From the IMG/VR virus record IMGVR_UViG_3300034082_001032: 64,000 bases of DNA. One strand, written 5' to 3'. The translations under genes were made by a program, and so were the position numbers. Shown piece after piece: positions 12,592 to 31,796 of the stretch; positions within the stretch are counted from its first letter, which is position 1, and every line of letters begins with the position of its first letter. The notes below the pieces were generated by a model. The model had not been told where the DNA came from and searched no databases. It worked only from the letters and a program-made list of their open reading frames with translations. This DNA is from a virus. Taxonomy: Duplodnaviria; Heunggongvirae; Uroviricota; Caudoviricetes; Crassvirales.

Positions 12592-12595
12592 ATCA

Positions 12596-12935: not shown

Positions 12936-15900
12936 TTATAAGGTAACTGGTCTAGCTTGTGACTGTGCTCTGATACCAAGATCTTTAGCCAACTCTGGAT
13001 AGAACATAGGAAGCATACCAGCAGCTTGGTTACTTATAGGGAATGATTTCATTAGGTATTTAATCACCTTGGTTTTCTCTACAAGTTCCTCATCACCTAC
13101 AGCCATACCAAACATTTCAGTATTAAAGTTCATTATGAGTTTCTTGAAGTTATTCAAATAACTAATTGATGGGAATATACCAGAAGAAACAAGACTAGTT
13201 AAACTAGTAGGATCATAGAAATAAGCCAACTCGTCCTTAATCTTATCAGCAGCTCTGAGCATAAACTTGTATTGATTCTTAACCGCTGCATCTTCATCAT
13301 CGTCTGGGGCATTTGCTTTCAGTCCAATATAGAGAGCATATATAGTTAACATGAACATCAGATCCACCATTTGTCCTTTGATGTTCTTTCTAGTAAGGTC
13401 AATAAACTGAGACTGAGTCATTTCCAAATCCTTACCTGTTTCAGCTTTATACTCTTCTCTCTTCTTTTCATAAAGGTTTCTCATGAATTCCACACCTTTA
13501 TCATTAGCCTGCACAGAGTTGATTAGGTTGTTAATTGATCCAACCACGTCTTCAGATATCACCCTGAAAACATTTCTCATTCTTCCCCATTCATAAGCAT
13601 CAGACGCAGAATTGTATTTAAGATTACCAAGACGTACATCCACCAATCTTGGAATCCAGTTTTTAAATAACATAAAAGATTTTCCATATATGTTCATGTT
13701 TATGTTTCTTACATCATCCTCTGTAAGGTTACCAAGAGCATCTTTACTAACTTGTTGTACCTTTCTTCTAAGTTCAATTACAGATTGTGATTTTCTATCT
13801 ACTCCAGGTATAACAAGTTCTCCATTCTTTATTTCTCCAAGTTTAAGAACACTCTTAGTTTCCAATAGTTCCTTAACATCTTTCTCAAACTTGTTAGCTC
13901 TATCCTTTCTTTCTTCAGCACTACCAGAATACATATCCTTGTATTCAGGTTGTTCTCTGAGATATTCTCTAACGTTAATCACCCTGTCACCATCTACAAT
14001 TGTATTTCTAAGGAATGTAAAGAAGTTAGCAGACTGAACAAACATGTCAGAGTTTCTCATAAGCACCATCATGAACTCTTGAATGTTCTCTTGACTTAAC
14101 TTACTGAGAGACAACTTTTTAGCAAGCTCTCTATTATAACTATCTGTAAAAGGAAGGAAGTATTCAATTGAACGAATCATTTTGTCCCTATCCTCACCAC
14201 GAGTCATTTTATTTCCTGCCATCCAAAGTTCTGTAGATAAATAGTCTTGTCTGGTGAAATACGTTCCAGCATTAATCATAGATTGGAAGTTACCACCTAA
14301 CAGGTTTGAAAGAGCAGATAGAGGATTAAGACCTAACGCGTTGAGTTGGAATGTGTTATTCAATTGGTCAATCACCTTGTTGATACTAATCTGTCTTCCA
14401 GATAAGTTCTCTGGGAATATCTTAATTCCAAGTTTCTTATTAGCTCTTTCTCCAAAATCACTCAGGCTACCAAGAAGTTGATCAAAGCTTTCACTTTGTA
14501 TAAATTTCTGTCCATATATAATGGACTTCATCATATCCTCAACAAGCTTAGTGTTCTCGTTATTATTTGCTGTGTATTCAAGTTTACCATCTTTATATTT
14601 GGTTTTACCAAATGTAGATGTGGCAATAGCTTTCTTGTTCCTTTCTGTATTCACAAGAGCCCTAGCCTGAGCTTCAATATCACTTACATATTTATATTTA
14701 ATAGCCATTTCATTATACAAAGCCATGTTCCTGAACAGGTCTGTGCTTAGCTCTCCTTCAATCTCTCTAGTAAAATATGTAGGAATTGTATCAATTAGTC
14801 TACCTGTAAGAGGATCTGTTTTACCAAATCCTACATCTCCTTCATCAATAGAAACACTTCTTAAAAATTGTTCACCAAGACTAATTTTTCCACCAAAGAT
14901 GATTTTCTCCATTAGTCCTTTTCTAACAAATGGTAAGAATATCCTAGCTTCAGCCTTGCTGATATATCCTATCTCTTGATAGTATTCATTTCTTTCTTTG
15001 ATATAATTGTAGAAATCAAATGCAGCCTTGTTCTCAGGTTTCGTAAGTTCTTTCCATTCAGCAGATTCCCATTTATCTCTCTTTGGAAACTTCTTTGTAA
15101 GATCGTACAAAAACCAACCAGGTGATTCAGATGTAGATGTGTTATAAAGATTCTGAACTTGTGCCTTCTCTCTAGAAATCTCTCTATTGACTTCATCTTC
15201 AGAACCAACTCTTGCCTTATTATCAATTCTCTCAAGTTCTTCTGCAAGCTTTTCTTGAAGGAACTTGTTGTATTCAACCCCATCAATATTGTCTCTAACC
15301 CAACTAAAGTCTTTATCAGTTGATTTAGACTTTAGTTCTTTATAAAAATCACGTTGAAACTCATCAATAAGTTCGTTCTTATCTTTCTTCTTAAGAATAT
15401 CAAAGTAGTTCTTATTGTTTAATCCTTTAGCCTGAGCCCATTTATCGTAGGATTCTTTGAGGGCAGCTAGCTTTTTAGTTTCATCTATAGTGTCCATAGA
15501 TGCAAACCCAAATGCTCTGTTTGCTTTTTTGTACAAAGTTTCAAGAGCTTTCAATTGTAAACTTGATGTAGATACAAACCATTTAGTTATACCCTTGATA
15601 ACTTTCTCTGGAGAGAGGTAGTTATCAACTCCTTCAGATCCAGCAACAAAATCATTTACAAATTCTCCTGATATATCATCAAGATTTGAATCAAGTTCTT
15701 GTGCTAATTCTGTCACTTCACGAAGCTCTTCTCTAAGTGCTCCATCTTCTTCAGATAGTTCTCCCTGGAACAAAAACTTCAAGTCTGTGTTTAATGTAAT
15801 GTAAGCAATCAATGAGTTCTTAGCTGTTTCCAATTCCTCATAGAACTTACTAATATCTTTCTGTTCAAAATCTTTTACATCTTTACCAGCCCAGTTTTCC

Positions 15901-17603
15901 TTATATCTGTCAATTGTTTTCTGAATCTCTTTGTTCAATATCTTAGCCTGACGAAGCAAAGGTTTCAGGTTTTGCTTCATTTGCAATTGGCGTATAGCTG
16001 TGAACAAAGCATTAAGCTGCTCAGCTTTAGATAACTTCTCGCTAGGGAGAGCCTTCTTTTCAGAAATCCTTTTATATACAGCATTTAGTTTTTCTAAGAG
16101 AGCATCAATCTTTTTGTTTCCTGTACTTTCTCCTTCAAGCCCTACAGGAATAAGATAGTCATCTGTGATGTTCTTTACATTAACATCACCTATTTTGATT
16201 GACTGTAATTGTGGAAGAACACCAAGTTTAGCATTTCCAGGAGAGTAGAAAGCTTTGATTGGAATCATCCTTGTCTGCTGGAAGTCTTGTGACCTAACAC
16301 CATATACATTCTGCAGAATAAGTTTATACTGTTCCATCTGTTCTCTCCAAGCATTCACTTTATACCAAGGAACATCCTCATATTTATCAATATTGAGGTC
16401 CATAAACTTCCAGTCAAGGATGTTCATCTTTCCATCAGGAGTGATAGCAAGGAAATCAATAGTACCAGCCAGTCCACGCTTAGCATCATACACCATCACC
16501 TCAGACATAAATCTGGTTCCTCCGTTCTCTTTTGGAAAAGAGTTAAGACGATCTTTGAGATTATCTCTCAGGATCTCGTACATATCTCTATCATTAGGAT
16601 TGAGTTGAGATACATAAGCAGAGTCATCCAAAGGATTATCTCTTAGGAATCCATCATCATCTACAAATACAGAGAATGCATACTCTACATCAGCATGACC
16701 AGATGTACCTTTCTCAGCCTTGAGATCATCAACAGCTTTCTGATAGTCAGACTTGGTAAGATCGTTAGCCTTAAACCTTCTCTCATACCAGTCTTTAACC
16801 AAGTCAGTTACCCTTCTGGGAACTTTCTTACCGTCTATATAATATCCATCATCCTCCTTAGCAATCTTAGATTGGATGTCTTTAAGTTTATTGTATACAG
16901 CTTCTTGAGATGTGCTTTTCTGTAAGAATATAGCATCTTCTTCAGCCCTAATATCTTCCACTGTACCAAAAGATTCTCCAGATAACACCTTCATTGCTGC
17001 TGTGTCAAATCCAGATTTTTGGAAGATGCGCTTTAGAGCATCAAGGATTGTCCTCCACCAGTTCTGCACCTTAGCAAGATTAGTGGCATTCTCAGATAAA
17101 CCTTCTGCTTTATTTGAAATCACCTCAGCCAACACTTTACCAATAGCTTCCTTCTTAAGTTTTAATATATCAGGCTTGCCATCTTTTGTTTGATAGTTAG
17201 GATCAGATCCATATGTATCAATTACATTTTGTAAAATCCTATACCCATTGATTTCCTTCAGGAGTGTATTGAATAACTTAGGATCTGTTTGTTGTATAAT
17301 CTCAACAGCAAAGTGCATAGCTTCCTCAGGAAGTGCTATATCCTCTTTGCCCTCAACAACTTGTACAAGTTTCTGAGTGATGTTAGCTATACCATTAGCA
17401 TTCAGTTTTACTCCGTTAACAATAATATCATCAACGTTTTCAACCTTTACACCAATTCTGTTAAGAAAGTCTTTTGCTAACTTTACAGTTTTAGAGGATG
17501 CAATCTTTTCTGCCTGTTCAAATTCAAGTTCTGCCAAGAGAGGGTTTTCAACTCTTCCTAGAATTTCTTGAAATCTTGCGTCATTTGGATTTATACAAGC
17601 CAT
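12936..17603 (-). CDS. Large virion/ejected protein (1555 aa), mostly alpha-helical
   Basis: Intact giant ORF stop/start-adjacent to the 3839-aa gene. There is a weak PD-(D/E)xK-like pattern ('GTIDFLAITPDGKMNILDWKF') near residue 400. It is one of the three-plus giant proteins typical of crAss-like virions. Confidence 0.6.
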   Translation of the reverse strand: MACINPNDARFQEILGRVENPLLAELEFEQAEKIASSKTVKLAKDFLNRIGVKVENVDDIIVNGVKLNANGIANITQKLVQVVEGKEDIALPEEAMHFAVEIIQQTDPKLFNTLLKEINGYRILQNVIDTYGSDPNYQTKDGKPDILKLKKEAIGKVLAEVISNKAEGLSENATNLAKVQNWWRTILDALKRIFQKSGFDTAAMKVLSGESFGTVEDIRAEEDAIFLQKSTSQEAVYNKLKDIQSKIAKEDDGYYIDGKKVPRRVTDLVKDWYERRFKANDLTKSDYQKAVDDLKAEKGTSGHADVEYAFSVFVDDDGFLRDNPLDDSAYVSQLNPNDRDMYEILRDNLKDRLNSFPKENGGTRFMSEVMVYDAKRGLAGTIDFLAITPDGKMNILDWKFMDLNIDKYEDVPWYKVNAWREQMEQYKLILQNVYGVRSQDFQQTRMIPIKAFYSPGNAKLGVLPQLQSIKIGDVNVKNITDDYLIPVGLEGESTGNKKIDALLEKLNAVYKRISEKKALPSEKLSKAEQLNALFTAIRQLQMKQNLKPLLRQAKILNKEIQKTIDRYKENWAGKDVKDFEQKDISKFYEELETAKNSLIAYITLNTDLKFLFQGELSEEDGALREELREVTELAQELDSNLDDISGEFVNDFVAGSEGVDNYLSPEKVIKGITKWFVSTSSLQLKALETLYKKANRAFGFASMDTIDETKKLAALKESYDKWAQAKGLNNKNYFDILKKKDKNELIDEFQRDFYKELKSKSTDKDFSWVRDNIDGVEYNKFLQEKLAEELERIDNKARVGSEDEVNREISREKAQVQNLYNTSTSESPGWFLYDLTKKFPKRDKWESAEWKELTKPENKAAFDFYNYIKERNEYYQEIGYISKAEARIFLPFVRKGLMEKIIFGGKISLGEQFLRSVSIDEGDVGFGKTDPLTGRLIDTIPTYFTREIEGELSTDLFRNMALYNEMAIKYKYVSDIEAQARALVNTERNKKAIATSTFGKTKYKDGKLEYTANNNENTKLVEDMMKSIIYGQKFIQSESFDQLLGSLSDFGERANKKLGIKIFPENLSGRQISINKVIDQLNNTFQLNALGLNPLSALSNLLGGNFQSMINAGTYFTRQDYLSTELWMAGNKMTRGEDRDKMIRSIEYFLPFTDSYNRELAKKLSLSKLSQENIQEFMMVLMRNSDMFVQSANFFTFLRNTIVDGDRVINVREYLREQPEYKDMYSGSAEERKDRANKFEKDVKELLETKSVLKLGEIKNGELVIPGVDRKSQSVIELRRKVQQVSKDALGNLTEDDVRNINMNIYGKSFMLFKNWIPRLVDVRLGNLKYNSASDAYEWGRMRNVFRVISEDVVGSINNLINSVQANDKGVEFMRNLYEKKREEYKAETGKDLEMTQSQFIDLTRKNIKGQMVDLMFMLTIYALYIGLKANAPDDDEDAAVKNQYKFMLRAADKIKDELAYFYDPTSLTSLVSSGIFPSISYLNNFKKLIMNFNTEMFGMAVGDEELVEKTKVIKYLMKSFPISNQAAGMLPMFYPELAKDLGIRAQSQARPVTL

Positions 17604-20600
17604 TTAGTAACATTCTTTAAGTTTATCAATAACGTTCTTTCTGTCTTTTGACAGAGCTTGATTTATATAATCAAGAGCTTGCGCTTCTGTCATATTGTAT
17701 TTCTGAGCAAAGTTAGTCAATATATTCTTCTTTTGCTCATCTGTAAAGTCTTTCAACCCTTCCAGAGTTGTAATGTTTGCTGCCTCTGGTGCAAAGTAGT
17801 TAAAGATGTCTGCATCAGGAATCTCGTTAGCGATCTTCTTTGTACCATTATCAAGAACAGATTTTTGGAAATCTAGATAGTATTCAGAACCAAGAGCTCC
17901 ATCACCATAAAGATTGATGAGTTTGTAAACATGTTTTACTATAGGCTCACCTTTATACATTTCTGTATAAGTTAATGGTTCACCGTTTCCAAACTTAACC
18001 TTCATGTATCCATACACTTCTTTCAAAGAAAGATCACCTTTTGCCTTTCTTTGAGCAAACATTGATGGTGTGATTGTTTTTCCTGTCTCCATGTCTATTT
18101 GCTCACCTTCTTGATTGATCACTCTAGGAACAAGAACAAAGTCAGCACTCACATCTAAAAAGTTAAACGTTTCGCTAAGGGTGAGTATTCTTCTTTCTAG
18201 AGAAAGAACATTTAGATTTTGTATGTTTGGAAAATATGATGTAGACGTATACTGATATATTTCATTCTCATACTGATCTATACCTACAGGACCAGCATCT
18301 TGTGGTAAAATAAACTTAGGAGATACAGTTTTCCAAATGTCATTATCTTTCCAATTGTTTCTTTGGAACCATCCTTGAGAGAATGCTTGTACATCCGTAT
18401 CTGCTACAATAGTTGATATGATGGGAGCAATAGTCTCACTGAAGTCTTCGATAGGGATAATGTTCTTTATAGAGATGGCAGATTGGTATGTACCTTGCAA
18501 TATTGCTAACATTACAATATCATAATACAAATCTCTAGTGGCAGGAGTGTCTCTCATTTCCCTCATGAGTCCTGTGTAGTAGTTCTCATCATAAGCTTCT
18601 TTTATGTTTGCAGCAAGCTTAATGCTTTTTGCACCATCCACTCTATCAGAACTTTCTATCTTAAGATCTTTGAGAATAGTAACTTCAGGATGATTTTTCT
18701 TAGCAGTGGCAAGTCTGTCTGCTACAGAAGTTCCTTTGTCTACCAATAGACTTTTAATCTCAGTGTTAATTCCACTCTTGATCTGAATAATATAATCAAG
18801 GAATGATGCTTTGAGTTTGTTTGCTATCTTTTCATACTTCTCAGCAGATAGATATTCTCTCTCAGCATAACTCTTTAATACTGAATTAGTTATGATTGTA
18901 AACTGATCTTGATCAAGTTTAAGAATCTCACCCAGTGATTCAGCAGCTCTGTCAAGAAGATTAGCTTGTTCACCAATAAATGTATTATCAAGAATCTTAT
19001 CTACAGAGGAGAAGATGTTAATTTCTCTAGCAACATCAGTTCTTGTTTGTTTTTTGAATAACGTGTCACCACTCTTAAACTTAGTAGTATCATAATTAGA
19101 TGCCTGTGTAAGCTTAAAGCTAAACTCACCCATCTTAGCATACTTCAAGAACTCATTAAATATCTTTTGTTGTTCTGCATTTTTTGTTCCACTGAACCTT
19201 ATACCACTATTATAGTCGCTAATATTTTCATCTAATGTACCCAAGCTTATCTCTACAGATTTAATTTCTTCTTCTGCAGCAAAAAATTTATCTTTTATAA
19301 GATCTATATTAGCTTTTCTAAATAGGTTTTTATCACCTAAGTTATCAAGCATATTCAGATACTCAGAAATGATAGGTTGATTCATGAACATTGCTGCTGT
19401 CTCAATAGGAACTCCAATCCTTTGGAGGAACATGAATGTACCTACAGCAAGATCACTTTGAATTACTCTAAGGATGTATGGATCTTTAGAAACGTCCACA
19501 AAAGATGTAGCATATCCAGACAGACCATCAGAGATTAAACTCTTATCTGTAGCATCGTATACACCAGATATAGAAATTCTTTTCTGACCATCAATCTCTA
19601 CACTATTGTGAGGAAGAATAATATTACCATCTCCTAAGAATTTTTTATCCCTAACAGACAATTCTAAAAACTTTGCAGGATCAATATACACTTCTGACTT
19701 CTGTGTAAGAGATTGACCTGTAATGTTTACAGCAGCAATACCTACCCACTTTTTACCAGTTACGAAAGCATGTCTCACTGAATCCATGAACTTCCTGCTA
19801 ATGAGTTTATTCTTGATGTCCTCTTCTTTCTCATTTCTGAGAGTGTCAAGTTTATCAGCAATCTTCTTCAAACCACCATCGCTTACTGGAGTGATGAGTC
19901 TTTCAAAGTTCTCAGGGAGCGTAAGAAGGCTTTCCAGAGATTCATAGTATTCATTCTCAAGGGATTGTTTATACAATCTCTCTGCTAATGTATTAATATC
20001 ATCTTCAAGAGCCTCTTCAGTTCTCTGACCATTATCACCAGCCAAATCCTGAGCTTTGATAAACTCTTTTGCTTTGTTCATTGCTTCTTCACCAATTCCA
20101 AAGAATGGAACTTGCTTAATGTCACCTGACTTAGTTACATATGTATTCTTTAAATACATATTCAATTTATCTATATCAAAGTCAGATCCTGCCTTGGTGG
20201 TGATTTCAGAAGGAACAACCACTGTAGCTCCCATAGATTGTGGAAGAAATCCTTTTACCTTAAACACCTCTACAGAGCTAAGAGCCTGTGTAGGAATACG
20301 GAAACCAATACCCCTAAGAATAGATTGATTCTCTTTTTTATTAAGATAGTCTAAAAGCTGTTCTTCTGTAGAGAATCTAGAATTAGCAAACTTATCTTTA
20401 AACCAGTGAGGAAGAAGAATCTCACAATAAGGAGCATCTTTTGTATAGAACTTCAAAGCTGTATCTGTAAGAGCCACATTTGATTTTTCTTCATCAGAAA
20501 GCTTTTCAAACTCACCTCTATTAATCTTAACCCACTTACCATCTCTCTTTATAACAAGAGACCTTCCTTCTGCAGAACTTTCCCATCCTGTAGCAGGAAC

Positions 20601-23600
20601 TTGTACATGAGCACCACCATTCATCTTTGGAGAAACAAGAGACTTGTCCACCATAGAGAATAGAATATTTCTTATTTGTACATATGCAGTAGATGCTTCA
20701 AAAGGAATTCTAAACTGTCCATTATCATCAAGTCTCACTGTATCTTTAGCATTGTCAGACATTTCTCTTCTAAGCATCTCACGCTCAAGGAGTTGTGAAA
20801 CACTTGCCCTATCAACAAGCTCAAAACTATCACCAAGGTCTTTGATACCAAGTTTTTTCAGAAGCTCAATATATCCATTCCTGTGGAGAGCATCTTGTAT
20901 TCTCTTGTGTCTGTTGTATTGTTCTTTTGCTTCTGCACTAGCTTTACCATTATTAAACAAGTCTAGTGTAGCAATCTTCATCAACTGAGAACCTCTGGTT
21001 TGAACCTTAGCTCCTTCAAAAGCATTCTCCACTTGTATACCGTAAGCTTTCCATGGAACTTGAACAAGGTTGTTAAAAGGTTTTTGATTAAGTGTACCAT
21101 CATTATTGTACAACTTATATTTTCCTTCTTTACCAACCTTTCTACCACTTTCCATGATAACATAACCAATCTTCTCTTTGAACATTTTCAAATAAAGAGC
21201 TTCAAGATTGGTTCCTTCAACCATGCTATAGTATAAAGGCATCTGAGAAAACTTATCTAATACAAGATCAAAGTTGGTCTTGTTAAACTTGTTTCCAGAT
21301 ACAATAGGTTTAAGAACTTCTGTTACATATTTAGGACTTGGTTTAGTAGCTTCAATAGCATCTTGTTCTCTGAGACGATTGTTCTTATATTGATACAATC
21401 CTTTCTCATGGAGCTTAAGTCTGGTGTAAGCCATTTCATGCTGATGCCAATTTTCTGCATCATCAGTCCATTGACCATTCTTGAGTTTAACTTCCCTATG
21501 TGTATTATCTATAATCCAGGAAGCAGCATCTGCTTCATTTGTTTTAGCATATGCAGGATTAATGTTTGCCAAGCTACCAACTATATTCAAGTCATTGAGA
21601 GTCACTGTGTTAGTGAATGGTTTGAATGTGTGGTAACCAAGTTCCTCAGGATCAAGAGCAATATTTCCTGCTTTATTATAATCCCTGTTAAGAGCTGAGT
21701 TAAGCTCTGGGAAGTCTGCAGTGATTCTTCTTGGAGAAAGGAAAGATTTAATACGTTTGGTTTCATCAAGCTTACCATTCTTCAACTCAAATTGATAAGG
21801 ATCACCAAACAAAATCTTGTGGTATTCTATATTGTTTATGATGTAGTTTACAGCCAAGAAGTTTGTAAGACTGTTGTATTCCTTTTCAGAAAGACTCTTG
21901 TCTAACTTTTCCTTCTTTAGGAAATTACTATCTAACTCTTCAGACCTAAGATTAATTTCACTTGCTTGCTGAGAAATCAAATCTTTAATAGACTCATTAA
22001 TGTCAGAGATGTTATCGCTGATGTATGTATTGATAGCATCATTAGATTCATTATTCAAAATCATATCATTGATTCTTCCAAGAATCTTTATAGGAAGAAT
22101 ATCTTTAAAGAACCTCAGTTCCTGTGCTCTGCTACCAACATTATTAAGTTGTTTCCTGTCAGCTTTTGCCAGAGCAATCTCATCTTCCAAATAACCTCTG
22201 AATATACTATAGATTGTAGGCCAAGCATCTCCAGATTCTACATCTTCAAATGACACAATGTTGCCTAAGTTCATCATCCATTCTGTAGAGCTATCTGCAG
22301 GAATTAGGATGTAGTAGTCACCATTGAGATTTTGGTTAACTTCCAACATAGCCCTGGTGTTTAAACCAAGTCTGTCTGTAGGAGTTCCTTTTTTATTATC
22401 ATTATCTCTAACCCCCTGGATATATTTAACCTTAATTGATTTTATCTTCTTTCCTTCTTTATCAAAGAACAGTCCTCCTTTCTTAAGAACTACGCTGTTC
22501 TTAGAGAACACATCTTTAAGTTCTGGTCTAGCCTCAAGAAGTTCATCTAATGTATTAACATCATTGAATTCACTTTCAAATACAGATGGAGCATTACTGT
22601 CAGCAAATGCATTTGTTTGTTTATCTTCTACGTTTCTGTAAGTGTTCTCATGTACAGGATTGGTCACTCTTACATAGAGCTCAGCAAGTTTAGCCAACTG
22701 ACCACCTACATTTAAAGTTTCTCCTTTAACACTCATCACCTCATCTACCTTCTGAAGATATGTATGAAGTGAGCCTACAGCTGTAATAAATTCTTTTTGT
22801 TGCTTTTCTTTGAGTTTCAAGAACACTTCAATTGGGAAATCAATACCCATTCTTGAAAGAAACTCAACCATCTCTTGAGGAGATTCTACAAGAACATTGG
22901 TAAGATCTTTAACTTTGTAAACCTTATCTACACTATTATAACTAATCAAAGAACTAGCATCTTTTGAAAGAGCCTTCATGTTCTCTGTCCAACCTTTTTG
23001 AGTTTGTTTGATTACAGTGAATAGATTAGCAGGAGCAGTATAAACCTCTCCACTATCCATATATTGAATCAATGCTTCTGGTTTCTGTTTAGTGAAAGTT
23101 TGGTAGAAGTTGATAAACAATCTCCAATCTTGTGGTTCAAACTTAGAGAAATCAATTGTGGCATTACCTTCATTATCTTTTCTAACTCCTTTCAGACGAG
23201 TAAACAAACGAACATAGTTGCCATCATATTTGGCAAGGTCAATCAGTTTATCAACCATCTTTCCAACCTTTGTTGTGTTAGAAAGTTTCTCAAGTACAGT
23301 GACAAATGCCCTACTAAAATTTAGTAGTTTTAATCCAATTATATCAGAAGTTTTTAGTTTTGGAAGTTCCAAACTACTAGAGTTCTCCTGATTTGTAGCA
23401 ACTGCTTCTGTCAGTGTTCCCAACAAAAGTTTTACTGGATAAGGAGATTGTTTTTTGAAATCTACAGAGAATGCTTCTGGAGCATACAAGCGATTGTTAT
23501 AGTTCTCATCATTAATGTTCACTTGAGCATTATCGTCAAACTCAATCTTAAAGGTACGCAAAAAGTCCTTTGTCTTTCCAACAAGCTCACTCCATGCAGT

Positions 23601-26600
23601 TTCTCCAAGAATTTCCAACTTACCTTCTTCCTCATATTGAGTTTTTATATCATCAAATATCTGAGGAGCTGTAAGTTTCTCTGGAGAGAACAGTGATGTA
23701 TTAGTTCCAAATATAGTTTGGAAAGCTCTAGCAGTGATGTCTTCAACAAACTCTCTAGTTTGTTTTTCATTCAATCCTTCTACAGCTCTGTATTCAGCAA
23801 AGTCATTTTTAACACTCTCTGGAAGAACTTTTTCTTTAAACCTACCTGTATCAATAGCCTTAAATAACTCTTCTTTTCCAGAAGGTTTATTTACAAATTG
23901 TTTTACAAACTCAATGATGCTTCTAAAGAACCTAAGTATTCTTTCTCCCAAAGAACGAGCTGGGAGCTTGCCCACTTTGAAATCAGCAAAGTCATCAGCA
24001 ATTCTTTCTTTAGCTTGCTGATCTGTAGCATCTACATAAGCAATCATTTTACCAGACTGCCTATCTTTGAACTCACCCTTCTTAGATTTGAACTCATCAA
24101 GAATAGCTTGTCTTTCTTCTTCAGAAAGAAATCCTTTCCACACACCCTCAAATATCTCGTGGTATTCTGTACCTCTAGCTGCAGACTTATAAAACTTAGC
24201 TACACCATTCTCAAATGCACCCCATGCTTTTTCATTATCATGTGTAATAAGAATGTTCTCAGTGATTTCATAAGGAATACCAGGAACATTCTTAGCAGCC
24301 CATAGTTTGAACAATTCAATCTCTCCGTCACTAATTCTATCAATACCTTCAGCACCCACTTTCCTATATTCACTATTAGCTGGAGGTTTAGTTCCTTTGA
24401 AGTTCTTAGGACCAACAGGTTTAACTTCTTCTACAATAGCTGCAGGAGCTTGTTCAGACTTCTGCTTTTTCAAATCTGCTGCAATTCTCAATGCAACAAA
24501 ATCAAGAGCAAGCTGCTCTTCATCTTTAGCAGCATCAAATTGATCTTGACTCTTAAGAGCTTCAATGACGCTAGCCATAGTTGCTTTGTTAGAAGCAATC
24601 TTTCTAATTACATCATTAGACTCAACACTAACTGAAATGTTATCATCTGCATCAATGTTTGCTATAAATTCAACAGGACCAGCAGTTAGTTGATATGAGT
24701 TCTTTGTTTGACCATCCAATACATAATCACCAATCTTTACAGCACTAGGAGCTCCAGGAGCAGATGCTGTAGGTTTAACTTCTTCCTTCTTAACAGATAC
24801 AATAGGAAGATCTAATCCTTGGAGAATAGCATATTTTTGTTTGAAGTTGTATGGTACTGCTTCTGTAGGCTTAACTACAGCTGTAGTGAGGAACGCTTGT
24901 TTTGTAGGTCTAGCTGTACCATTAGGGAAAGATGCAGAGAGTAGATAGGTTTGGTAGTTTGTCCATTCATTTGTGACAACCTTACCTTCCTTCATGTAAT
25001 ATTCCGTGAACGGTTCTCCAAATGCTTTAAGTGTGTCATCATTAACACTGTTATACATTTCCTGAACCTGAGAAATAATATCGTCTTTACTAGCTTCAAT
25101 GTTTGTTAAATCGTAAGTTTTACCACCAAGAAACAGATTCATAGAATCTGTATCAATGTATATCTTACCCTTCTCATCTGAAGGAGATGACTTCCAAAAT
25201 AAAATATTCTGAAGAAACCTTGCAATCTTCTTATTAATCTTTATCTTCTCATTAGCATCGGACTGATCTTTCACTTCATTAGAAATGCGATTTAGCAGTT
25301 CATATATTGCTTCAGCTTCTTGCTTTGTAAACTTCCTGTTATTAAGGAACATGAGAGTTTCACCAAACTGAAGAGCTGGTCTACCTTTAGGGATAGCTAC
25401 GTTTTCACCCTGATGAGCAATGAATCCTGATTTTGATATTTGTATAAGTCCTTCTTGTGTAGGAATAAGGTTTTCAGGAATAAGATTATCTCCTACAAGG
25501 TTTGTATCATAATAGTCTACAACCTCAGGAATACCTCTACTTACAAGAAATGAATATGCTTGGAATGTTCCTTCAGGAGCAGCAAAGAGTTCATTTCTTT
25601 TAGCTTGCCACCTTTGAGACATTTGCTCAGCTTCAGCTTTCTGATTAGACCTATACCTAGGTTTTTTATCACTTCTTGTGAGAGAAGCTGTAGGCATTGT
25701 ACCAAACACAATAGATTCAATATCCACTGGTTCTCCCACCTTTGCAAGTCTTCTACCAGCAACGTTTACATAATAGTAATCATTACCATCCTGCTCTACA
25801 TATATTGAAGCTACAAGTCCTACAATAGGATCATTGTATTCCTTCTCTGTAATACCAACTCCTTCAAATGCAATTTCTGGAAGCCTATCTAATCCAACAA
25901 TCTTTTGTTTAGGAGTGACAAGAATTGTTTTGAGCCTTGCCCTATTAGGCATAAGCTTTACATTATTAAGAAACTCAATCCTTCTAACAGAATATGCTTT
26001 GAGATTACCTGCTTCCCAATCTTCAGATGCACCTGTATCAGATGTATATAATATATTAGCACTCTTTTTAGAATCCTCAATGACAATCTTTTTAATATCA
26101 TCATCTAGATTTCCTGTACCTATAGAGCCAGAAGACTTTTCAATCTCAGCTTGTTCAGCTTCAATGTCACTTTTATCCTTCATCAACTTCTCTTGAGCAC
26201 TCATTATCTTTTCATATCCATCAAAATTAGATGGATCAAGATTGTATATATCACCATTAATATCTTCAACCTTTACAGTACCGTCATCATTAATACCAAT
26301 CACCTTCACCTTCTGAAGGTTACCAAGTTCTTCGTTTATAGAATCAACTTTTTCCTGTGCTTTTTCTTGAGATCCATGAAAGGTGATATTTCCATCAGGT
26401 GCAGTTACTTGCCACCTATCATCAGCAACTTTATCAATTCTAGCTTTCTTTCCTACAGGAATCTGATATTCCCTACCCTCTTCAAATGTTTCTTTAACAC
26501 CAGCCTTATTTGTAAACTTAGGACCTTCTTTAACCTCAACAACTTCTTCTCCTTTAACTTCTTCAGGAATAGATCCAGAACGTAATTGTTCTCCCTGATC

Positions 26601-29123
26601 CATATACTTATTAAACCCTTCTTCACTTGTAAGGTTATCATATAACTTAACCACTTTGTCTTTTAGAGAATTAAGTCTATTGATATCATGACCATATGTA
26701 AACAGATCAAGAGCGTTTTCTGGACCAACTTGTCTATCAGCTTTTGGATCTTGATTATTGAGTTCAAAGTTGAGCAAGTAGTCAAATAGCTTATTATCTA
26801 CACCATCTTTCAAACCAAGATTGATTCTTTCAGAAGCTGTACGCAATGCTTTAACCTGATCGTTTATATTCTTTCTATCTTGAGCAGATGTAAAATCTGT
26901 GATAGTTTTATTTAAAGCATTAGCACTTTGCTCATATGATGCTGAAAGATCTTTTAGTGATTCTTTATTAGTCAACTGAGAAAGCAAATCATTTGTAACA
27001 GCAGGACTAATATCACTAACACTTTGTTGTATAGAATCTAATCTATTATTTACATGTGGAACTTTTGCTGCAAGAAATGTAAGTTCTGTTTTCCATTTAT
27101 TGAAATCATCGAAACGTGATGTTTCAAGCCCTTCCTCATCGGTGGTTGGATTATCTATCTTCTTGAAAGGATTCTTGAATGTAAAATCAATTGAATTACT
27201 AATCTTCTTAATTTGATTAGCTTCATTGATTAATGAATCTACATATTCATTTACAGTGGACTTATTGGAAGAACTGAAGTCCATACCAAATGACTTCTCA
27301 AATTCAGTTTTGTCCAAATCTTTCAACATCTTCAACTGCTCAATTGTAACATCATGCATTCCTGAAGGAATACGTGATTGTACAAATTTAATGAACATGT
27401 CGTCCTTAAGATTTTTGTACTTAAAGACATCCCCAGCTTTTACAGCCTCGTCCATCTCTTTTGCAATACCTGCAGAACTTAATGTATTTTCATACTGATT
27501 TGTAAGAGTTCCAGTGAGACCATATTGATTAAGAATATTGATAGCACTTTGTAAACGAGCTTCTTTTCCTTGTCCTTTTGCTGCATCAATTCTTCCTATT
27601 ATACCACCTGATATGAGTGCACTAATTGCACCCACCATCATGTTCTCCAATCCTTCAGAAGTACCAAACTGATTCTTTAATCCTGTAAGTGTAGAGTTTA
27701 CTGTTTCATTTACAGTGTTCCAGGTTTCTTTATTCTTTGGATCAGACAGGTTTTTGTACTTTCTTGTATAGTAATCATACACACCTTTCTCAGTGGCATA
27801 TTGACCACCTTCTTCATACACACCTTCTGTCAAGATGTTTGCCATCTTTGGTCTAACAGACTCCCAAACTTTTTCTCCTAATCCTGTAGCAACCTTTGCT
27901 TCAAATACATCTTTAGATCCTTCTTTCAAACCTACCTTACCAAAATCTTCAAGTTCTTTTGTAAGTTGACCTGAGACAGCTTTGTTTGCAGAGGTAAATG
28001 ATTTAAATAAATTTCCAAACTGAATAGCATTAGATGCTGTCAGTAGTGCCATGTTAATACCAAATCTGGTATTCATTGCACTTGTTGCGTAATCTTCAAT
28101 TTGCTCAGCATCTTCTCCTGTAGGATCAACACCAGCATTTTCAAGTCTATATTGTCTTAATAGATCTTCTCTTACAGTGCGATAGGAATCCCTAGCCTCA
28201 ATAGCAGCCTCAGTTCTTGCTGATCCATATAAAGACATTCCATATCTAAATCCATCAGTAATTTTTGTATATGAAGCAAGGTCACCTAGTTTCTTAACAT
28301 CTAGTATTGTATCAGCAGCAACCCCAGCTGTTTTTGCTACATCAAGAGCTTTTTCTACATTGTTTGTTCCAACAAAAAGCTTATTTAGAAAAAGAGAAGC
28401 TTTACCTATTTGACCAGCAACCAAAGGAATTGCTCCAATACCCTCTGTTACAAGACCTATTGCTGCATCTTGAGCAATTGCTCCACCAATAGCACCTGCT
28501 GTAAAACCAAGATTTTTAATAACTTTATCACCCCAGAAGTTTGCAGAACCTGGAGCAAAAGGAAGCATTGCCAAATAAGGATGCTTTTGTTCCTCACGAG
28601 TGTAATAGTTTGGAAAAATGTCTTCCAAGTTCTTTGTCCAGTTATCAATAGCAGCCTCATAACCATCCACTCCTCCAGATAGATTGGAGAGTTTACCATT
28701 TTTAATAGCAGAGATTGTATTTGGGATAGTGGCAAAACTTTGTAGAAATGTACCTACACCAATGCCTCCCATTTTTATAACACCATTAGCTAATTGATCT
28801 GTCCATGATTGTTGTAAACCATATATATTCTCAAGATCTACATTTCTTTGATAAGTAGTATAACGTTGATTTGCAAGAAGTTCACTTTTTGGAACCATCT
28901 GTACAGGGCTACTGAAAGAAGATTGATTTGTCCTAAGTCCAGAAAACTCAGAAAGTTGATCAATGTTCAACCCTGTTTTTCCAACACCTGCACTGCCGTA
29001 TGTTTCAAAACCACCAAGACTAACATCAACATCTCTTACAGTGGGAGATGGCAGAAGCTTCTTAGGAGCCTCGGGGGCTCTATTAGAAACATTATCAATA
29101 AGTTCGTTATCAAAAATAGCCAT
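17604..29123 (-). CDS. Giant virion protein (3839 aa) containing a two-barrel RNA polymerase catalytic-loop-like motif (candidate crAss-like virion RNAP)
   Basis: 'VVVPSEITTKAGSDFDIDKLNMY' (DFDID encoded at ~20169..20183, about residue 2980) resembles the 'NADFDGD' Mg-binding loop of the beta-prime DPBB and the QDE-1 'DYDGD' motif. Its position among the giant cargo proteins downstream of the tail genes matches crAss-like architecture. Confidence 0.6.
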   Translation of the reverse strand: MAIFDNELIDNVSNRAPEAPKKLLPSPTVRDVDVSLGGFETYGSAGVGKTGLNIDQLSEFSGLRTNQSSFSSPVQMVPKSELLANQRYTTYQRNVDLENIYGLQQSWTDQLANGVIKMGGIGVGTFLQSFATIPNTISAIKNGKLSNLSGGVDGYEAAIDNWTKNLEDIFPNYYTREEQKHPYLAMLPFAPGSANFWGDKVIKNLGFTAGAIGGAIAQDAAIGLVTEGIGAIPLVAGQIGKASLFLNKLFVGTNNVEKALDVAKTAGVAADTILDVKKLGDLASYTKITDGFRYGMSLYGSARTEAAIEARDSYRTVREDLLRQYRLENAGVDPTGEDAEQIEDYATSAMNTRFGINMALLTASNAIQFGNLFKSFTSANKAVSGQLTKELEDFGKVGLKEGSKDVFEAKVATGLGEKVWESVRPKMANILTEGVYEEGGQYATEKGVYDYYTRKYKNLSDPKNKETWNTVNETVNSTLTGLKNQFGTSEGLENMMVGAISALISGGIIGRIDAAKGQGKEARLQSAINILNQYGLTGTLTNQYENTLSSAGIAKEMDEAVKAGDVFKYKNLKDDMFIKFVQSRIPSGMHDVTIEQLKMLKDLDKTEFEKSFGMDFSSSNKSTVNEYVDSLINEANQIKKISNSIDFTFKNPFKKIDNPTTDEEGLETSRFDDFNKWKTELTFLAAKVPHVNNRLDSIQQSVSDISPAVTNDLLSQLTNKESLKDLSASYEQSANALNKTITDFTSAQDRKNINDQVKALRTASERINLGLKDGVDNKLFDYLLNFELNNQDPKADRQVGPENALDLFTYGHDINRLNSLKDKVVKLYDNLTSEEGFNKYMDQGEQLRSGSIPEEVKGEEVVEVKEGPKFTNKAGVKETFEEGREYQIPVGKKARIDKVADDRWQVTAPDGNITFHGSQEKAQEKVDSINEELGNLQKVKVIGINDDGTVKVEDINGDIYNLDPSNFDGYEKIMSAQEKLMKDKSDIEAEQAEIEKSSGSIGTGNLDDDIKKIVIEDSKKSANILYTSDTGASEDWEAGNLKAYSVRRIEFLNNVKLMPNRARLKTILVTPKQKIVGLDRLPEIAFEGVGITEKEYNDPIVGLVASIYVEQDGNDYYYVNVAGRRLAKVGEPVDIESIVFGTMPTASLTRSDKKPRYRSNQKAEAEQMSQRWQAKRNELFAAPEGTFQAYSFLVSRGIPEVVDYYDTNLVGDNLIPENLIPTQEGLIQISKSGFIAHQGENVAIPKGRPALQFGETLMFLNNRKFTKQEAEAIYELLNRISNEVKDQSDANEKIKINKKIARFLQNILFWKSSPSDEKGKIYIDTDSMNLFLGGKTYDLTNIEASKDDIISQVQEMYNSVNDDTLKAFGEPFTEYYMKEGKVVTNEWTNYQTYLLSASFPNGTARPTKQAFLTTAVVKPTEAVPYNFKQKYAILQGLDLPIVSVKKEEVKPTASAPGAPSAVKIGDYVLDGQTKNSYQLTAGPVEFIANIDADDNISVSVESNDVIRKIASNKATMASVIEALKSQDQFDAAKDEEQLALDFVALRIAADLKKQKSEQAPAAIVEEVKPVGPKNFKGTKPPANSEYRKVGAEGIDRISDGEIELFKLWAAKNVPGIPYEITENILITHDNEKAWGAFENGVAKFYKSAARGTEYHEIFEGVWKGFLSEEERQAILDEFKSKKGEFKDRQSGKMIAYVDATDQQAKERIADDFADFKVGKLPARSLGERILRFFRSIIEFVKQFVNKPSGKEELFKAIDTGRFKEKVLPESVKNDFAEYRAVEGLNEKQTREFVEDITARAFQTIFGTNTSLFSPEKLTAPQIFDDIKTQYEEEGKLEILGETAWSELVGKTKDFLRTFKIEFDDNAQVNINDENYNNRLYAPEAFSVDFKKQSPYPVKLLLGTLTEAVATNQENSSSLELPKLKTSDIIGLKLLNFSRAFVTVLEKLSNTTKVGKMVDKLIDLAKYDGNYVRLFTRLKGVRKDNEGNATIDFSKFEPQDWRLFINFYQTFTKQKPEALIQYMDSGEVYTAPANLFTVIKQTQKGWTENMKALSKDASSLISYNSVDKVYKVKDLTNVLVESPQEMVEFLSRMGIDFPIEVFLKLKEKQQKEFITAVGSLHTYLQKVDEVMSVKGETLNVGGQLAKLAELYVRVTNPVHENTYRNVEDKQTNAFADSNAPSVFESEFNDVNTLDELLEARPELKDVFSKNSVVLKKGGLFFDKEGKKIKSIKVKYIQGVRDNDNKKGTPTDRLGLNTRAMLEVNQNLNGDYYILIPADSSTEWMMNLGNIVSFEDVESGDAWPTIYSIFRGYLEDEIALAKADRKQLNNVGSRAQELRFFKDILPIKILGRINDMILNNESNDAINTYISDNISDINESIKDLISQQASEINLRSEELDSNFLKKEKLDKSLSEKEYNSLTNFLAVNYIINNIEYHKILFGDPYQFELKNGKLDETKRIKSFLSPRRITADFPELNSALNRDYNKAGNIALDPEELGYHTFKPFTNTVTLNDLNIVGSLANINPAYAKTNEADAASWIIDNTHREVKLKNGQWTDDAENWHQHEMAYTRLKLHEKGLYQYKNNRLREQDAIEATKPSPKYVTEVLKPIVSGNKFNKTNFDLVLDKFSQMPLYYSMVEGTNLEALYLKMFKEKIGYVIMESGRKVGKEGKYKLYNNDGTLNQKPFNNLVQVPWKAYGIQVENAFEGAKVQTRGSQLMKIATLDLFNNGKASAEAKEQYNRHKRIQDALHRNGYIELLKKLGIKDLGDSFELVDRASVSQLLEREMLRREMSDNAKDTVRLDDNGQFRIPFEASTAYVQIRNILFSMVDKSLVSPKMNGGAHVQVPATGWESSAEGRSLVIKRDGKWVKINRGEFEKLSDEEKSNVALTDTALKFYTKDAPYCEILLPHWFKDKFANSRFSTEEQLLDYLNKKENQSILRGIGFRIPTQALSSVEVFKVKGFLPQSMGATVVVPSEITTKAGSDFDIDKLNMYLKNTYVTKSGDIKQVPFFGIGEEAMNKAKEFIKAQDLAGDNGQRTEEALEDDINTLAERLYKQSLENEYYESLESLLTLPENFERLITPVSDGGLKKIADKLDTLRNEKEEDIKNKLISRKFMDSVRHAFVTGKKWVGIAAVNITGQSLTQKSEVYIDPAKFLELSVRDKKFLGDGNIILPHNSVEIDGQKRISISGVYDATDKSLISDGLSGYATSFVDVSKDPYILRVIQSDLAVGTFMFLQRIGVPIETAAMFMNQPIISEYLNMLDNLGDKNLFRKANIDLIKDKFFAAEEEIKSVEISLGTLDENISDYNSGIRFSGTKNAEQQKIFNEFLKYAKMGEFSFKLTQASNYDTTKFKSGDTLFKKQTRTDVAREINIFSSVDKILDNTFIGEQANLLDRAAESLGEILKLDQDQFTIITNSVLKSYAEREYLSAEKYEKIANKLKASFLDYIIQIKSGINTEIKSLLVDKGTSVADRLATAKKNHPEVTILKDLKIESSDRVDGAKSIKLAANIKEAYDENYYTGLMREMRDTPATRDLYYDIVMLAILQGTYQSAISIKNIIPIEDFSETIAPIISTIVADTDVQAFSQGWFQRNNWKDNDIWKTVSPKFILPQDAGPVGIDQYENEIYQYTSTSYFPNIQNLNVLSLERRILTLSETFNFLDVSADFVLVPRVINQEGEQIDMETGKTITPSMFAQRKAKGDLSLKEVYGYMKVKFGNGEPLTYTEMYKGEPIVKHVYKLINLYGDGALGSEYYLDFQKSVLDNGTKKIANEIPDADIFNYFAPEAANITTLEGLKDFTDEQKKNILTNFAQKYNMTEAQALDYINQALSKDRKNVIDKLKECY

Positions 29124-29126
29124 TAT

Positions 29127-31709
29127 TTATCTATTTTTTTTCAGTAGATCTTCTACAGTGTTTGTTCCAATATTGTTAATTACTCCAATTACACCATCTT
29201 CTGTAAGGAATCCTTGTTGATTAAGAATATCTGTCTTCCATGTATTGCCATCATATACATACATCCTAACACTATACTTATCACTAGGACCACCATTGTT
29301 AAAAGGATTACCTTCTACATCAAGTCTAACTTTAGGAGCTATTGCAGTTTTTGCCAAACCAGGAATATTGTATCCAGTAAAATAAGCATTAACAGCAGCA
29401 GATTCATCATTTCCACCAGCAAGATTTGTAGTGTGATTTGGTGATGACATTACAGCATACTTAACACTGTTCAAAGGATGTGTTTGTGCATAGTCTGGGA
29501 AGAAAGAACTAAACTCATTTGTAGTCATTGGAACTATTTGAGTGGTTGACCCATCTGTAACAATCATATTAGCACTACCATCATACTTCTTTTCAATAGT
29601 ATATTTTGTATTAGGATTCTTTTGTAGCTCTGTAAGGGCAGATGGACTAAATTGTTCTTTACGTTCAACGTCCACTTGACCAAGAGTTTCGTATTCACGA
29701 AACTTATTTCCTAAAAGATTATCAATGCGTCTCTTAACATTCTCATTCTTTGAATCTATTGTACCAATAGCCACTTGATATTCAGGCATTCTTTTTGCCA
29801 ATTCAGATGATTGATAATCAAGCTTTTGTTTTACTGTACCTGCAAGAGCTGGTTGATACTTCTTCTCAAGATCAATACCTTTGTTAATTATTGAACTTTC
29901 AACAGAAGTTAACGGTTGTCCACTAAAACGTTTACTGTAAGCTCTTGCAATTGGTTCATATTTAGTTCCTTTATATTTAGCTAAAAGTCCTTGAGAATCA
30001 ATTGTAACTTTTGCTTGTGTTCCACCATAACCTCCACCTTCACTTCTTATAAACTTCTTAGCGTCATTCACTACAGAGAAAAGTTCTTCTGCACTATATA
30101 ACTGTTTTCCATTTGCAAAATTAACACCACCTTCAGATCCCATCGCTTTAGCAATCTGCTCATCAAACTGTTTACTTCCTTCATGTACAGTTTTAAACAA
30201 ATTGTTTTTCTGTGCAATGTCTATTTCAAATCCTCTCTTTCTTTCTACATATTCTTTTTGTAGAGGATCTTTTATGCTTCTTGGATTAATATTATAATCA
30301 TCAACAAGCTTTTGTAAAGCCTTTTGTCTTTCACCTGCTGATAATTTTGAAAATAATTGAGGAGCATATTCTGAATCAAGTTGTTTTGATGCTTGACCAG
30401 CAGCTTCTATTTGTGTGTTAAGTTCAGCAAGAGTGGGCATCTTTGTACTTGTAGAAAGACCTCCAGGAGTTACAACAGGAGCTTCAAGCATTGATTTTCT
30501 CACTCTTTCTGTTTCTTCAGCTTGAAACTTTTGTATATTTAGAGCATGAGTAGCTGCCCACTCTGCGTGTTCTTGTCTAGCTCTATTAACTGAGAACTCC
30601 AATTTCTTTTTCTCCATATTCATCTGAGCATATGGATTACTTTGAATTTCTTGGACATAGCTCTGATAAGACATATCTTGAGCTAAGTTGGTCAAGTATT
30701 TCTGTGTATACAGTTTAGATTTATAATCTTCTATATTGGTTATACTATCTAATCTAGATAGTTCAGATCTTAACTCGCTATCGAGTTTACCACTCCTGAG
30801 TGTTTCATTTATTCTATTGATCTGTGCTTCTTTTTCTGCTTTTTGTACAGATGTAAGATTTGGGTTTGATTTAAGTTCAACAGACAAATCAACAATCTCA
30901 TCAGATAGCATCTTTTTATTTCTATCGTATGTGGTTTGTAAGTCTCTCTTAAACGTATCTTTAGTTGCTCCTCTGTAATGATACATTCCAGTTACACTAA
31001 GTTGCTGCTTTTCTCTTTCATCCAAACTTGAATAAAAGTTATCAAGTAGTTTTTGAGCAGACTTTCCTTTAGTTTTAACACGAAGCATTGCATCATCAAC
31101 TAAAAAATTACCATTCTTGTCACGGATATAATTACCAGCATTATCTCTTTGGTAAGGAATGTCAATAGAATTATCTATTTCTTTAACTTTTTCAGCAACT
31201 TCTCTTAATTTAGAATCAACATCTATATACTCTAGATAACCACCATTAAAACTGCTGTCAAGTTTTCCATCATTTATCCAGCCTCCTACTTGGGTATCCC
31301 ACCACCAGTCATTCTCAGGAGAAGACTTTCCAGATTTAATTGCTGCCTCTTTGTCTTGTTGTCCTTTTCTAACTTTCTGAGTGGACATGACAGCATTGTT
31401 TACAATTGGATCCTTAACAATCTGTGTAGACATTCCTCCTACAGAGTTGACAAGTTGGAAGTTTGAGAAGTCTCCAGCAGCTACAGTTTTCAACTTGCTT
31501 CCTAATTCATTAAGCTTTGACTGCAGATATTGTTTTTGAAGAGGTTTGACAACATCTAATCCAGCAATACTATCTATATATCCCTGAATTTTCTGAACTC
31601 CCTCATCATACTTCTGCTGTTTGTACATACCCACCTTCACCATAGCATCTACGGGAAGTTGGGAAACATAAGGGTTAAATTGTGATATTGCGTCTGTAAA
31701 TGAAGCCAT
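29127..31709 (-). CDS. Large virion protein (860 aa), function unknown
   Basis: Intact ORF within the co-directional late operon. It has a coiled-coil-rich middle region. Confidence 0.55.
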   Translation of the reverse strand: MASFTDAISQFNPYVSQLPVDAMVKVGMYKQQKYDEGVQKIQGYIDSIAGLDVVKPLQKQYLQSKLNELGSKLKTVAAGDFSNFQLVNSVGGMSTQIVKDPIVNNAVMSTQKVRKGQQDKEAAIKSGKSSPENDWWWDTQVGGWINDGKLDSSFNGGYLEYIDVDSKLREVAEKVKEIDNSIDIPYQRDNAGNYIRDKNGNFLVDDAMLRVKTKGKSAQKLLDNFYSSLDEREKQQLSVTGMYHYRGATKDTFKRDLQTTYDRNKKMLSDEIVDLSVELKSNPNLTSVQKAEKEAQINRINETLRSGKLDSELRSELSRLDSITNIEDYKSKLYTQKYLTNLAQDMSYQSYVQEIQSNPYAQMNMEKKKLEFSVNRARQEHAEWAATHALNIQKFQAEETERVRKSMLEAPVVTPGGLSTSTKMPTLAELNTQIEAAGQASKQLDSEYAPQLFSKLSAGERQKALQKLVDDYNINPRSIKDPLQKEYVERKRGFEIDIAQKNNLFKTVHEGSKQFDEQIAKAMGSEGGVNFANGKQLYSAEELFSVVNDAKKFIRSEGGGYGGTQAKVTIDSQGLLAKYKGTKYEPIARAYSKRFSGQPLTSVESSIINKGIDLEKKYQPALAGTVKQKLDYQSSELAKRMPEYQVAIGTIDSKNENVKRRIDNLLGNKFREYETLGQVDVERKEQFSPSALTELQKNPNTKYTIEKKYDGSANMIVTDGSTTQIVPMTTNEFSSFFPDYAQTHPLNSVKYAVMSSPNHTTNLAGGNDESAAVNAYFTGYNIPGLAKTAIAPKVRLDVEGNPFNNGGPSDKYSVRMYVYDGNTWKTDILNQQGFLTEDGVIGVINNIGTNTVEDLLKKNR

Positions 31710-31796
31710 GTCTGATTAAGTTAGCAAATGTAATTTAAAAAGTAATACCAACCAAGAGCAATAACTACTTTCATTAAGTTGGTATAACTGAGTTGA

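Follow-up and report, generated by a model that had tools for sequence, protein, structure and literature searches.

A giant crassvirus gene predicted to encode a virion RNA polymerase fused to a protein that has its own upstream gene in other crAss-like phages

The stretch of DNA analysed here, called the window, comprises 64,000 nucleotides of the IMG/VR virus record IMGVR_UViG_3300034082_001032 (Crassvirales). Its minus strand carries a giant gene (17604..29123). We read its 3,839-amino-acid (aa) product as a DNA-dependent RNA polymerase of the single-chain, two-barrel type that is packaged in the virion and carries, fused to its N-terminus, a protein with a separate, upstream gene in other crAss-like phages. 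We put the probability of this reading at roughly 0.9. As judged from its marker genes, the window belongs to a crassvirus: it encodes the families PF23898 Crass_capsid (E 6e-27), PF25731 crAss_MUZ (E 4e-39) and PF24228 CrAss_Ring_1 (E 4e-9), and a P22-like portal.

The giant gene is a single ATG-to-stop open reading frame (ORF), encoding 3,839 aa plus the stop, as revealed by the ORF list and the translation. It is part of a block of consecutive large ORFs of 1063, 860, 3839 and 1555 aa, all of the same direction and closely spaced. Three nucleotides separate the stop of the 860-aa ORF (ORF860) from the ATG of the giant ORF, and the ATG of the 1,555-aa ORF (ORF1555) comes immediately after the giant ORF's stop. 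An initial annotation of the window had reported this block of four genes, the length of the giant ORF and an AGSDFDID motif with DFDID at 20169..20183; the genes were all found, and length and position were exact. AGSDFDID corresponds to aa 2978-2985 (20169..20192, minus strand), and DFDID (aa 2981-2985) is the sole DxDxD in the protein. In a protein of equal size and composition, D[FY]DxD is expected 0.10 times and AxDFDxD 0.004 times by chance. The bare D[FY]DxD pentamer is weak evidence by itself, and its weight comes from homology.

A phmmer search against all PDB sequences returned one match only, 6VR4_A, which is gp66 of Cellulophaga phage phi14:2 (E 4e-22). The main stretch of the alignment covers ~650 residues (aa 2344-2997 against gp66 794-1391). 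Here '...TKAGSDFDIDKLNMYLKN' is aligned with '...TKTGSDFDIDKMYVMLPN' of gp66, and the motif matches the gp66 'GSDFDIDK' residue for residue, with DFDID 2981-2985 corresponding to gp66 1361-1365. In a second stretch (aa 3194-3314 against gp66 1610-1738), FVDxxKDPYI is common to both proteins. BLASTP gave E 3e-29 both for residues 837-1745 of gp66 and for residues 1064-1803 of gp50 from Bacteroides phage crAss001, which has DFDVD at residue 1483. The phi14:2 enzyme is packaged in the virion and transcribes the early genes, and each Asp of its DFDID is essential for RNA synthesis (bioRxiv 10.1101/2020.03.07.982082). Neither Pfam nor PHROG gave anything meaningful for the full-length protein, the family being missing from those libraries. 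A tblastn search of 50,697 deposited phage genomes found no close relative; the best identities were 21-29%, at no more than 32% coverage of the polymerase part.

The predicted structure agrees with the sequence matches. For aa 2340-3420, AlphaFold2 with an input of 35 homologues gave a model that reached a mean predicted local distance difference test score (pLDDT) of 85.1 and a predicted template modelling score (pTM) of 0.80. Foldseek matched this core model to 6vr4_A (E 7.5e-31, template modelling score (TM) 0.68), with no other match below E 0.09. The model has two strand clusters (aa ~2599-2714 and ~2833-2991) on either side of a helical connector, and the Asp loop is in the second. Two double-psi beta-barrels in a gp66-like core are thus predicted around DFDID, the fold that the initial annotation had proposed to look for. 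A 32-residue helix (model residues 771-802), with the invariant residues R3117, G3128, A3131 and T3135, is a candidate bridge helix. Its position agrees, by the phmmer alignment offsets, with the bridge helix of gp66 (residues 1529-1559); the gp66 trigger loop comprises residues 1598-1636 (bioRxiv 10.1101/2020.03.07.982082). A T7-type right-hand fold like that of the phage N4 enzyme was considered and dropped: the polymerases among the listed fold matches are all two-barrel enzymes or subunits, and none is T7-like. With gp66 as the sole PDB sequence match, an exactly aligned motif and a gp66-like fold, the identification as a crAss-like single-chain virion RNA polymerase stands, and the gene can with confidence be annotated as a crass-type virion RNA polymerase.

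Conservation was assessed in two sets of relatives. The first consisted of 46 related IMG/VR loci (41-90% identity) and the related contig L003. The second came from a HMMER scan with the core across 1.84 billion cluster representatives (clusters at 50% identity), which gave 2,557 homologues at E<=1e-3; the counts of representatives given below refer to the 146 new ones among the best 150 of these. Of the related ORFs, 45 extend to the site (44 of the 46 IMG/VR loci, plus L003), and GSDFDIDK was invariant among them. DFD[I/V/F]D was present in 145/145 representatives covering the site, the sole exception among the 146 being truncated before the motif. The Asp triad, the conservation of which had been an issue for the initial annotation, is therefore kept in every member of both sets that reaches the site. 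Thirty core columns, the barrel-1 lysines included, are invariant across relatives of 24-84% identity.

The N-terminal part of the giant protein, here called the N-module, is related to another known cargo gene. BLASTP aligned aa 53-704 with residues 38-723 of crAss001 gp47 (2,341 aa; E 2e-21), and a second segment, aa 1633-1788, with gp47 2135-2304. A profile built from 37 giant homologues matched gp47 over aa 52-877 (E 1e-57). An N-module-only profile matched phi14:2 gp67 (E 4e-11), the gene directly upstream of gp66, which had been missed by BLASTP, phmmer and the full-length family profile. N-module profile matches were also obtained to the 1,552-aa protein of phage Lbo-JY46 (E 2e-77) and to the 2,208-aa structural protein of phage csAssE-Sib (E 7e-32). 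The phi14:2 gene order gp67-gp66-gp65 matches that of N-module, polymerase and ORF1555. In crAss001, gp47 is annotated as a 'putative RNA-polymerase subunit' and is a virion cargo protein. The sequence comparisons thus identify the extra ~1,800 residues as the orthologue of the upstream gene phi14:2 gp67 / crAss001 gp47. By size, gp67 (1,797 aa) and gp66 (2,180 aa) add up to 3,977 aa.

The N-module also occurs as a separate protein lacking a DxDxD motif. This is the case for a 2,208-aa 'structural protein' of the epsilon crAss-like phage csAssE-Sib (E 4e-35); a separate 1,552-aa form is found in Leptolyngbya phage Lbo-JY46 (E 2e-78), and further homologues, annotated 'structural protein', in the Cellulophaga phages phi4:1 and phi17:2. 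The polymerase core was not detectable by profile in the 93% of the Lbo-JY46 genome that was covered. Because the N-module is also found as a separate protein without the catalytic motif, it most likely serves packaging or ejection, and not catalysis or transcription. Epsilon crAss-like phages were at one point taken for N-module carriers without a polymerase; this was dropped, as a divergent virion polymerase is reported there (PMC11054128). The N-module has three moderately hydrophobic, Gly/Ala-rich stretches. The one at aa ~203-245, with a Kyte-Doolittle peak of 1.5 at aa 221-239 and with N204, G206 and G210 invariant (alignment A4), is a possible membrane-active segment. An ejection or membrane role of the N-module is something we infer. 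In the protein as a whole (3,839 aa) Cys occurs only twice, at aa 2900 and as the penultimate residue ('...KECY', aa 3838-3839 = 17607..17612), and the C-terminal Cys column is close to invariant in alignment A1. The hydrophobic stretches and the low Cys content weakly fit a protein that unfolds and crosses an envelope.

The two halves meet in a linker at which conservation falls (aa 1501-1600). Insertions of 80-539 aa were found at position ~1565 in 24 of 36 larger homologues, and the linker is close to a gene boundary of L003 and, as judged from gene order, to the one that separates gp67 from gp66 in phi14:2. Pfam searches of the whole protein (E<=0.1) found no intein, Hint or LAGLIDADG domain and no cell-wall hydrolase. 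Against the family profile, 55 residues are in insert states, with no private insertion longer than 17 residues. Of the explanations offered by the initial annotation for the extra length, fused modules therefore held, and an intein or a cell-wall-degrading module did not.

Fusion is the majority state in a large clade of uncultured environmental crassviruses. Among the representatives, 127 of 146 were at least 3,500 aa long (median 4,119, maximum 5,650), and 113 of these 127 giants contained both the N-module and the polymerase core. Among the 46 IMG/VR loci, 41 had one complete, collinear stop-to-stop ORF of 3,657-5,141 aa, three were cut by contig ends and two (L040 and L042) were split. 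The 3,839-aa protein is at the short end of its family, in which length variation is concentrated at the linker (aa ~1565) and at the extreme C-terminus; the largest IMG/VR homologues (up to 5,141 aa, L045) gain sequence at the C-terminus. A size much larger than that of described crAss-like examples had been claimed for this protein. In numbers this holds against gp66 (2,180 aa); however, fused polyproteins of the crAss-like transcription block were already mentioned by Drobysheva et al. (bioRxiv 10.1101/2020.03.07.982082), and most representatives are giants. Yutin et al. (2021, PMC7886860) likewise described 'several large, multidomain proteins', the boundaries of which differ between close relatives. 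Two impressions are thereby corrected, that of an exceptional size and that of a hidden intein or lysin. The understanding of these enzymes is unchanged by the present results, and the by-products are modest. An early impression that relatives are mostly split was also rejected: it came from a fragment-based homologue search, which returned only proteins of up to 1,831 aa and lacked the query's own protein, so that its lengths are misleading for giants. The IMG/VR loci and the representative library showed this to be a limit of the search and not biology.

In the split variants, breaks recur at three places (aa ~1565, ~1790 and ~2400), and these delimit the modules of the family. L003 is split into 1710, 828 and 1605 aa, with a run of N's (a scaffold gap) near the first break. 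L040 and L042 are split into 1927 and 2373 aa, and several other catalytic genes of ~1,450-1,800 aa are known. A 221-aa GIY-YIG homing-endonuclease ORF ('GIYKLYF...FYIGST') lies exactly at the split of L042 (IMGVR_UViG_3300035670_000055, 10768..11433), and the same ORF is present at the start of L040, the only other split IMG/VR relative. A group I intron was considered for L042; Rfam gave no match, and the GIY-YIG gene is treated as free-standing. Some relatives have a NADAR domain (PF08719) inside the polymerase gene product (L003 10001..14818 (P0009), and P0016).

Three other readings of the giant ORF were weighed and found wanting to different degrees. The most deserving of them holds that the polymerase-like module is an inactive relic, which serves only as structural or ejection cargo. 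The low identity to gp66 (~22-24%) would speak for it. However, the Asp triad, its flanking GS..DK and the 30 further core positions are invariant over the whole 24-84% range of identity, and the triad is kept in every representative that covers the site. Because this pattern indicates purifying selection on active-site residues, a dead enzyme is very unlikely. Even less probable is an artefact, in which mis-assembly or a frameshift joined separate genes, or an unrecognised intein or intron caused the length. The split relatives (L003 with its gap, L040 and L042) would speak for it. Yet the same 3,839-aa protein is present, identical, on at least nine contigs, which come from a number of independent JGI and ENA samples and include one of 101,932 bp, and for this reason the giant ORF is not regarded as an assembly artefact. 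The architecture is also shared by the 41 complete IMG/VR relatives and the 127 giant representatives, intein-type domains and larger insertions are missing as described above, and no Rfam intron was found in 12000..36000. Least credible of all is a coincidental DFDID in an unrelated large structural protein. Its chance expectation of 0.10 leaves some room for the pentamer by itself; the phmmer match to 6VR4 and the fold match rule it out.

Between the linker and the polymerase lies a domain with an HExx[H/E] motif, which is a candidate zincin-like module. No other part of the protein's N-terminal half is as well conserved (identity 0.62), and H1655 and E1656 are invariant in homologues. By hhalign, the domain matched the C-terminus of crAss001 gp47, which has HEAFH (probability 96.9%, E 1e-10), and gave no match to the HExxH region of phi14:2 gp65. 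No PDB profile matched it, and a Pfam scan of 33 domain sequences produced scattered noise only. The motif was found in 121 giants, as HExxE in 96 and as HExxH in 25, a state that does not track whether genes are fused or split.

How the fused chain matures bears on its form and not on its identity. A serious possibility, to which we give somewhat less than even odds, is a polyprotein with a cleavage site in the linker (aa ~1540-1600) and perhaps a second one beyond the HExx domain. Either the internal HExx[H/E] domain, as a peptidase of zincin-like type, or some other protease of the phage would do the cutting. The active polymerase would be a protein of ~2,000-2,250 aa like gp66, in agreement with the proposed identity and with a different mature form. 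Drobysheva et al. called the fused polyproteins 'likely cleaved' and noted a zincin-like protease domain in the gene block (bioRxiv 10.1101/2020.03.07.982082). In phi14:2, crAss001, L003 and L040/L042 the modules are encoded separately and are thus able to work as separate chains; the breaks between these genes fall at the insertion hot spot of the linker. Of the 127 giants, 124 have the HExx domain, with the His and Glu invariant, and a Glu 18 residues after the motif is nearly invariant, a spacing that we read as gluzincin-like. On the other side, the second His is replaced by Glu here and in 96 of 121 giants, and the domain is kept where genes are already split, so that cutting the fusion is not its only role. 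No peptidase was matched by sequence or profile (Pfam, PDB), and the model of aa 1590-2400 is poor. Moreover, the N4 virion polymerase of ~3,500 aa can be ejected uncut (PMC13434306). It is rather doubtful that the fusion here is likewise functional and uncut, with a ~430-kDa chain ejected as one piece. If this were true, the N-module, which has Gly-rich hydrophobic segments, would be the first to enter or cross the host envelope and would hold the polymerase at the site of DNA entry. Genome entry and early transcription would then be coupled. Such a two-barrel enzyme would be a counterpart of the N4 polymerase reached by convergence, and the change from HExxH to HExxE would mark a domain that lost, or never had, a processing role.

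By analogy with its orthologues, the giant virion polymerase would be part of the capsid cargo, along with the gp49-like protein of 1,555 aa and smaller cargo proteins. Either before the DNA or along with it, the partly unfolded chain would be threaded through the tail into a Bacteroidota host; for this step we follow the ejection model of PMC10172136. In the host it would refold and transcribe the phage early genes, the Asp triad binding the catalytic Mg2+. For crAss001, mass spectrometry of virions revealed gp47, gp49 and gp50 (PMC6235969; PMC10172136).

Several points weigh against parts of this reading. Packaging, ejection and activity are all carried over from orthologues at ~22-24% identity. 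The confident model is limited to aa ~2340-3420; for aa 1590-2400 the pLDDT was only 58.6, a poor model for which Foldseek gave no PDB match below E 0.08. No sequence match extended upstream of gp66 residue ~790, and in gp66 the cleft-blocking (auto-inhibitory) N-terminal domain comprises residues 196-233. The N-module has no recognisable fold or domain, as PDB profile searches with both halves and Pfam and PHROG searches gave no match to it, and its role is read from gene position, independent occurrence and modest hydrophobic segments. HEIFE lacks the second His of the HExxH zinc-binding motif, and around it the model has a pLDDT below 55 and no Foldseek match.

Among the known systems, phi14:2 gp66 (PDB 6VR4) is the closest. 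Homology extends over at least aa 2344-3331, including the GSDFDIDK loop and the FVDxxKDPYI trigger-loop region, and both genes have the same position in the gene block, upstream of a gp65/gp49-like gene. Unlike gp66, a separate protein, the polymerase here is the C-terminal ~2,050 aa of 3,839, with low identity and no match to gp66 1-~790. The N-module (aa ~52-877) is homologous to both gp67 and gp47, and the C-terminal HEAFH domain of gp47 matches aa ~1600-1790. In contrast to the fused N-module, gp67 and gp47 are separate genes, and crAss001 gp47 is on the opposite strand from gp50 and gp49. Furthermore, gp47 has a canonical HExxH where HExxE is found here, and no HExx domain was detected in gp67. 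The 'huge polyprotein' form (Yutin et al. 2018, as cited by Drobysheva et al., bioRxiv 10.1101/2020.03.07.982082) is, as far as that citation goes, also an in-frame fusion with a neighbouring virion protein; all three proteins are fused there, whereas here the gp65/gp49-like protein stays a separate 1,555-aa gene.

The coliphage N4 virion RNA polymerase (~3,500 aa, Schitoviridae) is a parallel by analogy and not by homology. It is a giant, capsid-packed chain of similar size, which is ejected for early transcription and has its catalytic part between non-catalytic regions. Unlike the two-barrel polymerases, it belongs to the T7-like, right-hand type of single-subunit enzymes; no structure of it was among the best 50-60 listed fold matches. 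Thermus phage P23-45 gp96 is also a virion polymerase fused to a structural/ejection protein (the tape measure protein), with the polymerase N-terminal to its partner there and C-terminal here. Both gp96 and Neurospora QDE-1 with its related RNA-silencing polymerases are far more distant than gp66 and have other flanking domains.

Table 1 Features of the giant gene and of its downstream neighbour (positions in the window)
Feature	Position	Strand	Residues	Remarks
Giant gene	17604..29123	-		gp67/gp47-like module, HExx[H/E] domain and gp66/gp50-like virion RNA polymerase (predicted) in one frame
N-module	24429..29123	-	1-~1565	homologous to phi14:2 gp67 and to the N-terminal ~900 aa of crAss001 gp47
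Best conserved N-module core	26493..28970	-	52-877	
Gly/Ala-rich hydrophobic stretch	28389..28517	-	~203-245	GFTAGAIGGAIAQDAAIGLVTEGIGAIPLVAGQIG
Inter-module linker	24324..24506	-	~1540-1600	hypervariable, Pro/Lys/Ala-rich; KKQKSEQAPAAIVEEVKPVGPKNFKGTKPPANSEY
HExx[H/E] domain	23754..24326	-	~1600-1790	candidate zincin-like module, unproven
YHEIFE motif	HEIFE 24147..24161	-	YHEIFE 1654-1659, HEIFE 1655-1659	
RNA polymerase module	17607..23753	-	~1791-3839	orthologous to phi14:2 gp66 and crAss001 gp50
Modelled catalytic core	18864..22106	-	2340-3420	
First double-psi beta-barrel region	20982..21329	-	~2599-2714	approximate limits; invariant K2605, K2624, K2662, G2664
Second double-psi beta-barrel region	20151..20627	-	~2833-2991	approximate limits; carries the catalytic loop
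Asp triad	20169..20183	-	D2981/D2983/D2985	predicted Mg2+-binding; aligned to the gp66 catalytic Asp residues, invariant in homologues
Bridge-helix candidate	19701..19796	-	3110-3141	inferred from helix and position
Trigger-loop-equivalent segment	19458..19544	-	~3194-3222	...GYATSFVDVSKDPYI; by sequence alignment to gp66
Downstream partner gene (ORF1555)	12936..17603	-	1,555 aa	crAss001 gp49-like 'RNA polymerase-associated' cargo, in the position of phi14:2 gp65

The downstream partner, ORF1555, was matched to gp49 by two collinear BLASTP segments (E 1e-5 and 3e-5). Its identity to the gene after the polymerase is 62% in L003 and 48% in L042. No HExxH was found in ORF1555.

Crass-type genes were also seen in the cultured 125-kb cyanophage Lbo-JY46 (PP438436.1, L054), which is unclassified below Caudoviricetes. 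Its region 1213..26667 has, besides the 1,552-aa N-module, a homologue of ORF860 and a muzzle homologue (E 1e-102 to the window ORF 37877..42574). The gene after the N-module encodes 2,748 aa, with two HExxH motifs and no DFDxD.

Elsewhere in the window, a 2,590-aa collagen-like tail-fibre/tail-spike gene with many PHROG tail-fibre matches occupies 4608..12380 (minus strand). The G+C content is 0.43-0.46 at 8-12 kb and ~0.35 elsewhere. On the near-identical contig L004, gene calling instead gave a 583-aa gene of opposite direction here, a difference suggesting that the receptor-binding locus is variable or rich in repeats. A 417-aa DNA-repair exonuclease-like gene (44750..46003, minus strand; phrog_704, E 3e-47) lies amid structural genes of the virion, flanked by the tail-ring genes and a tail-fibre gene.

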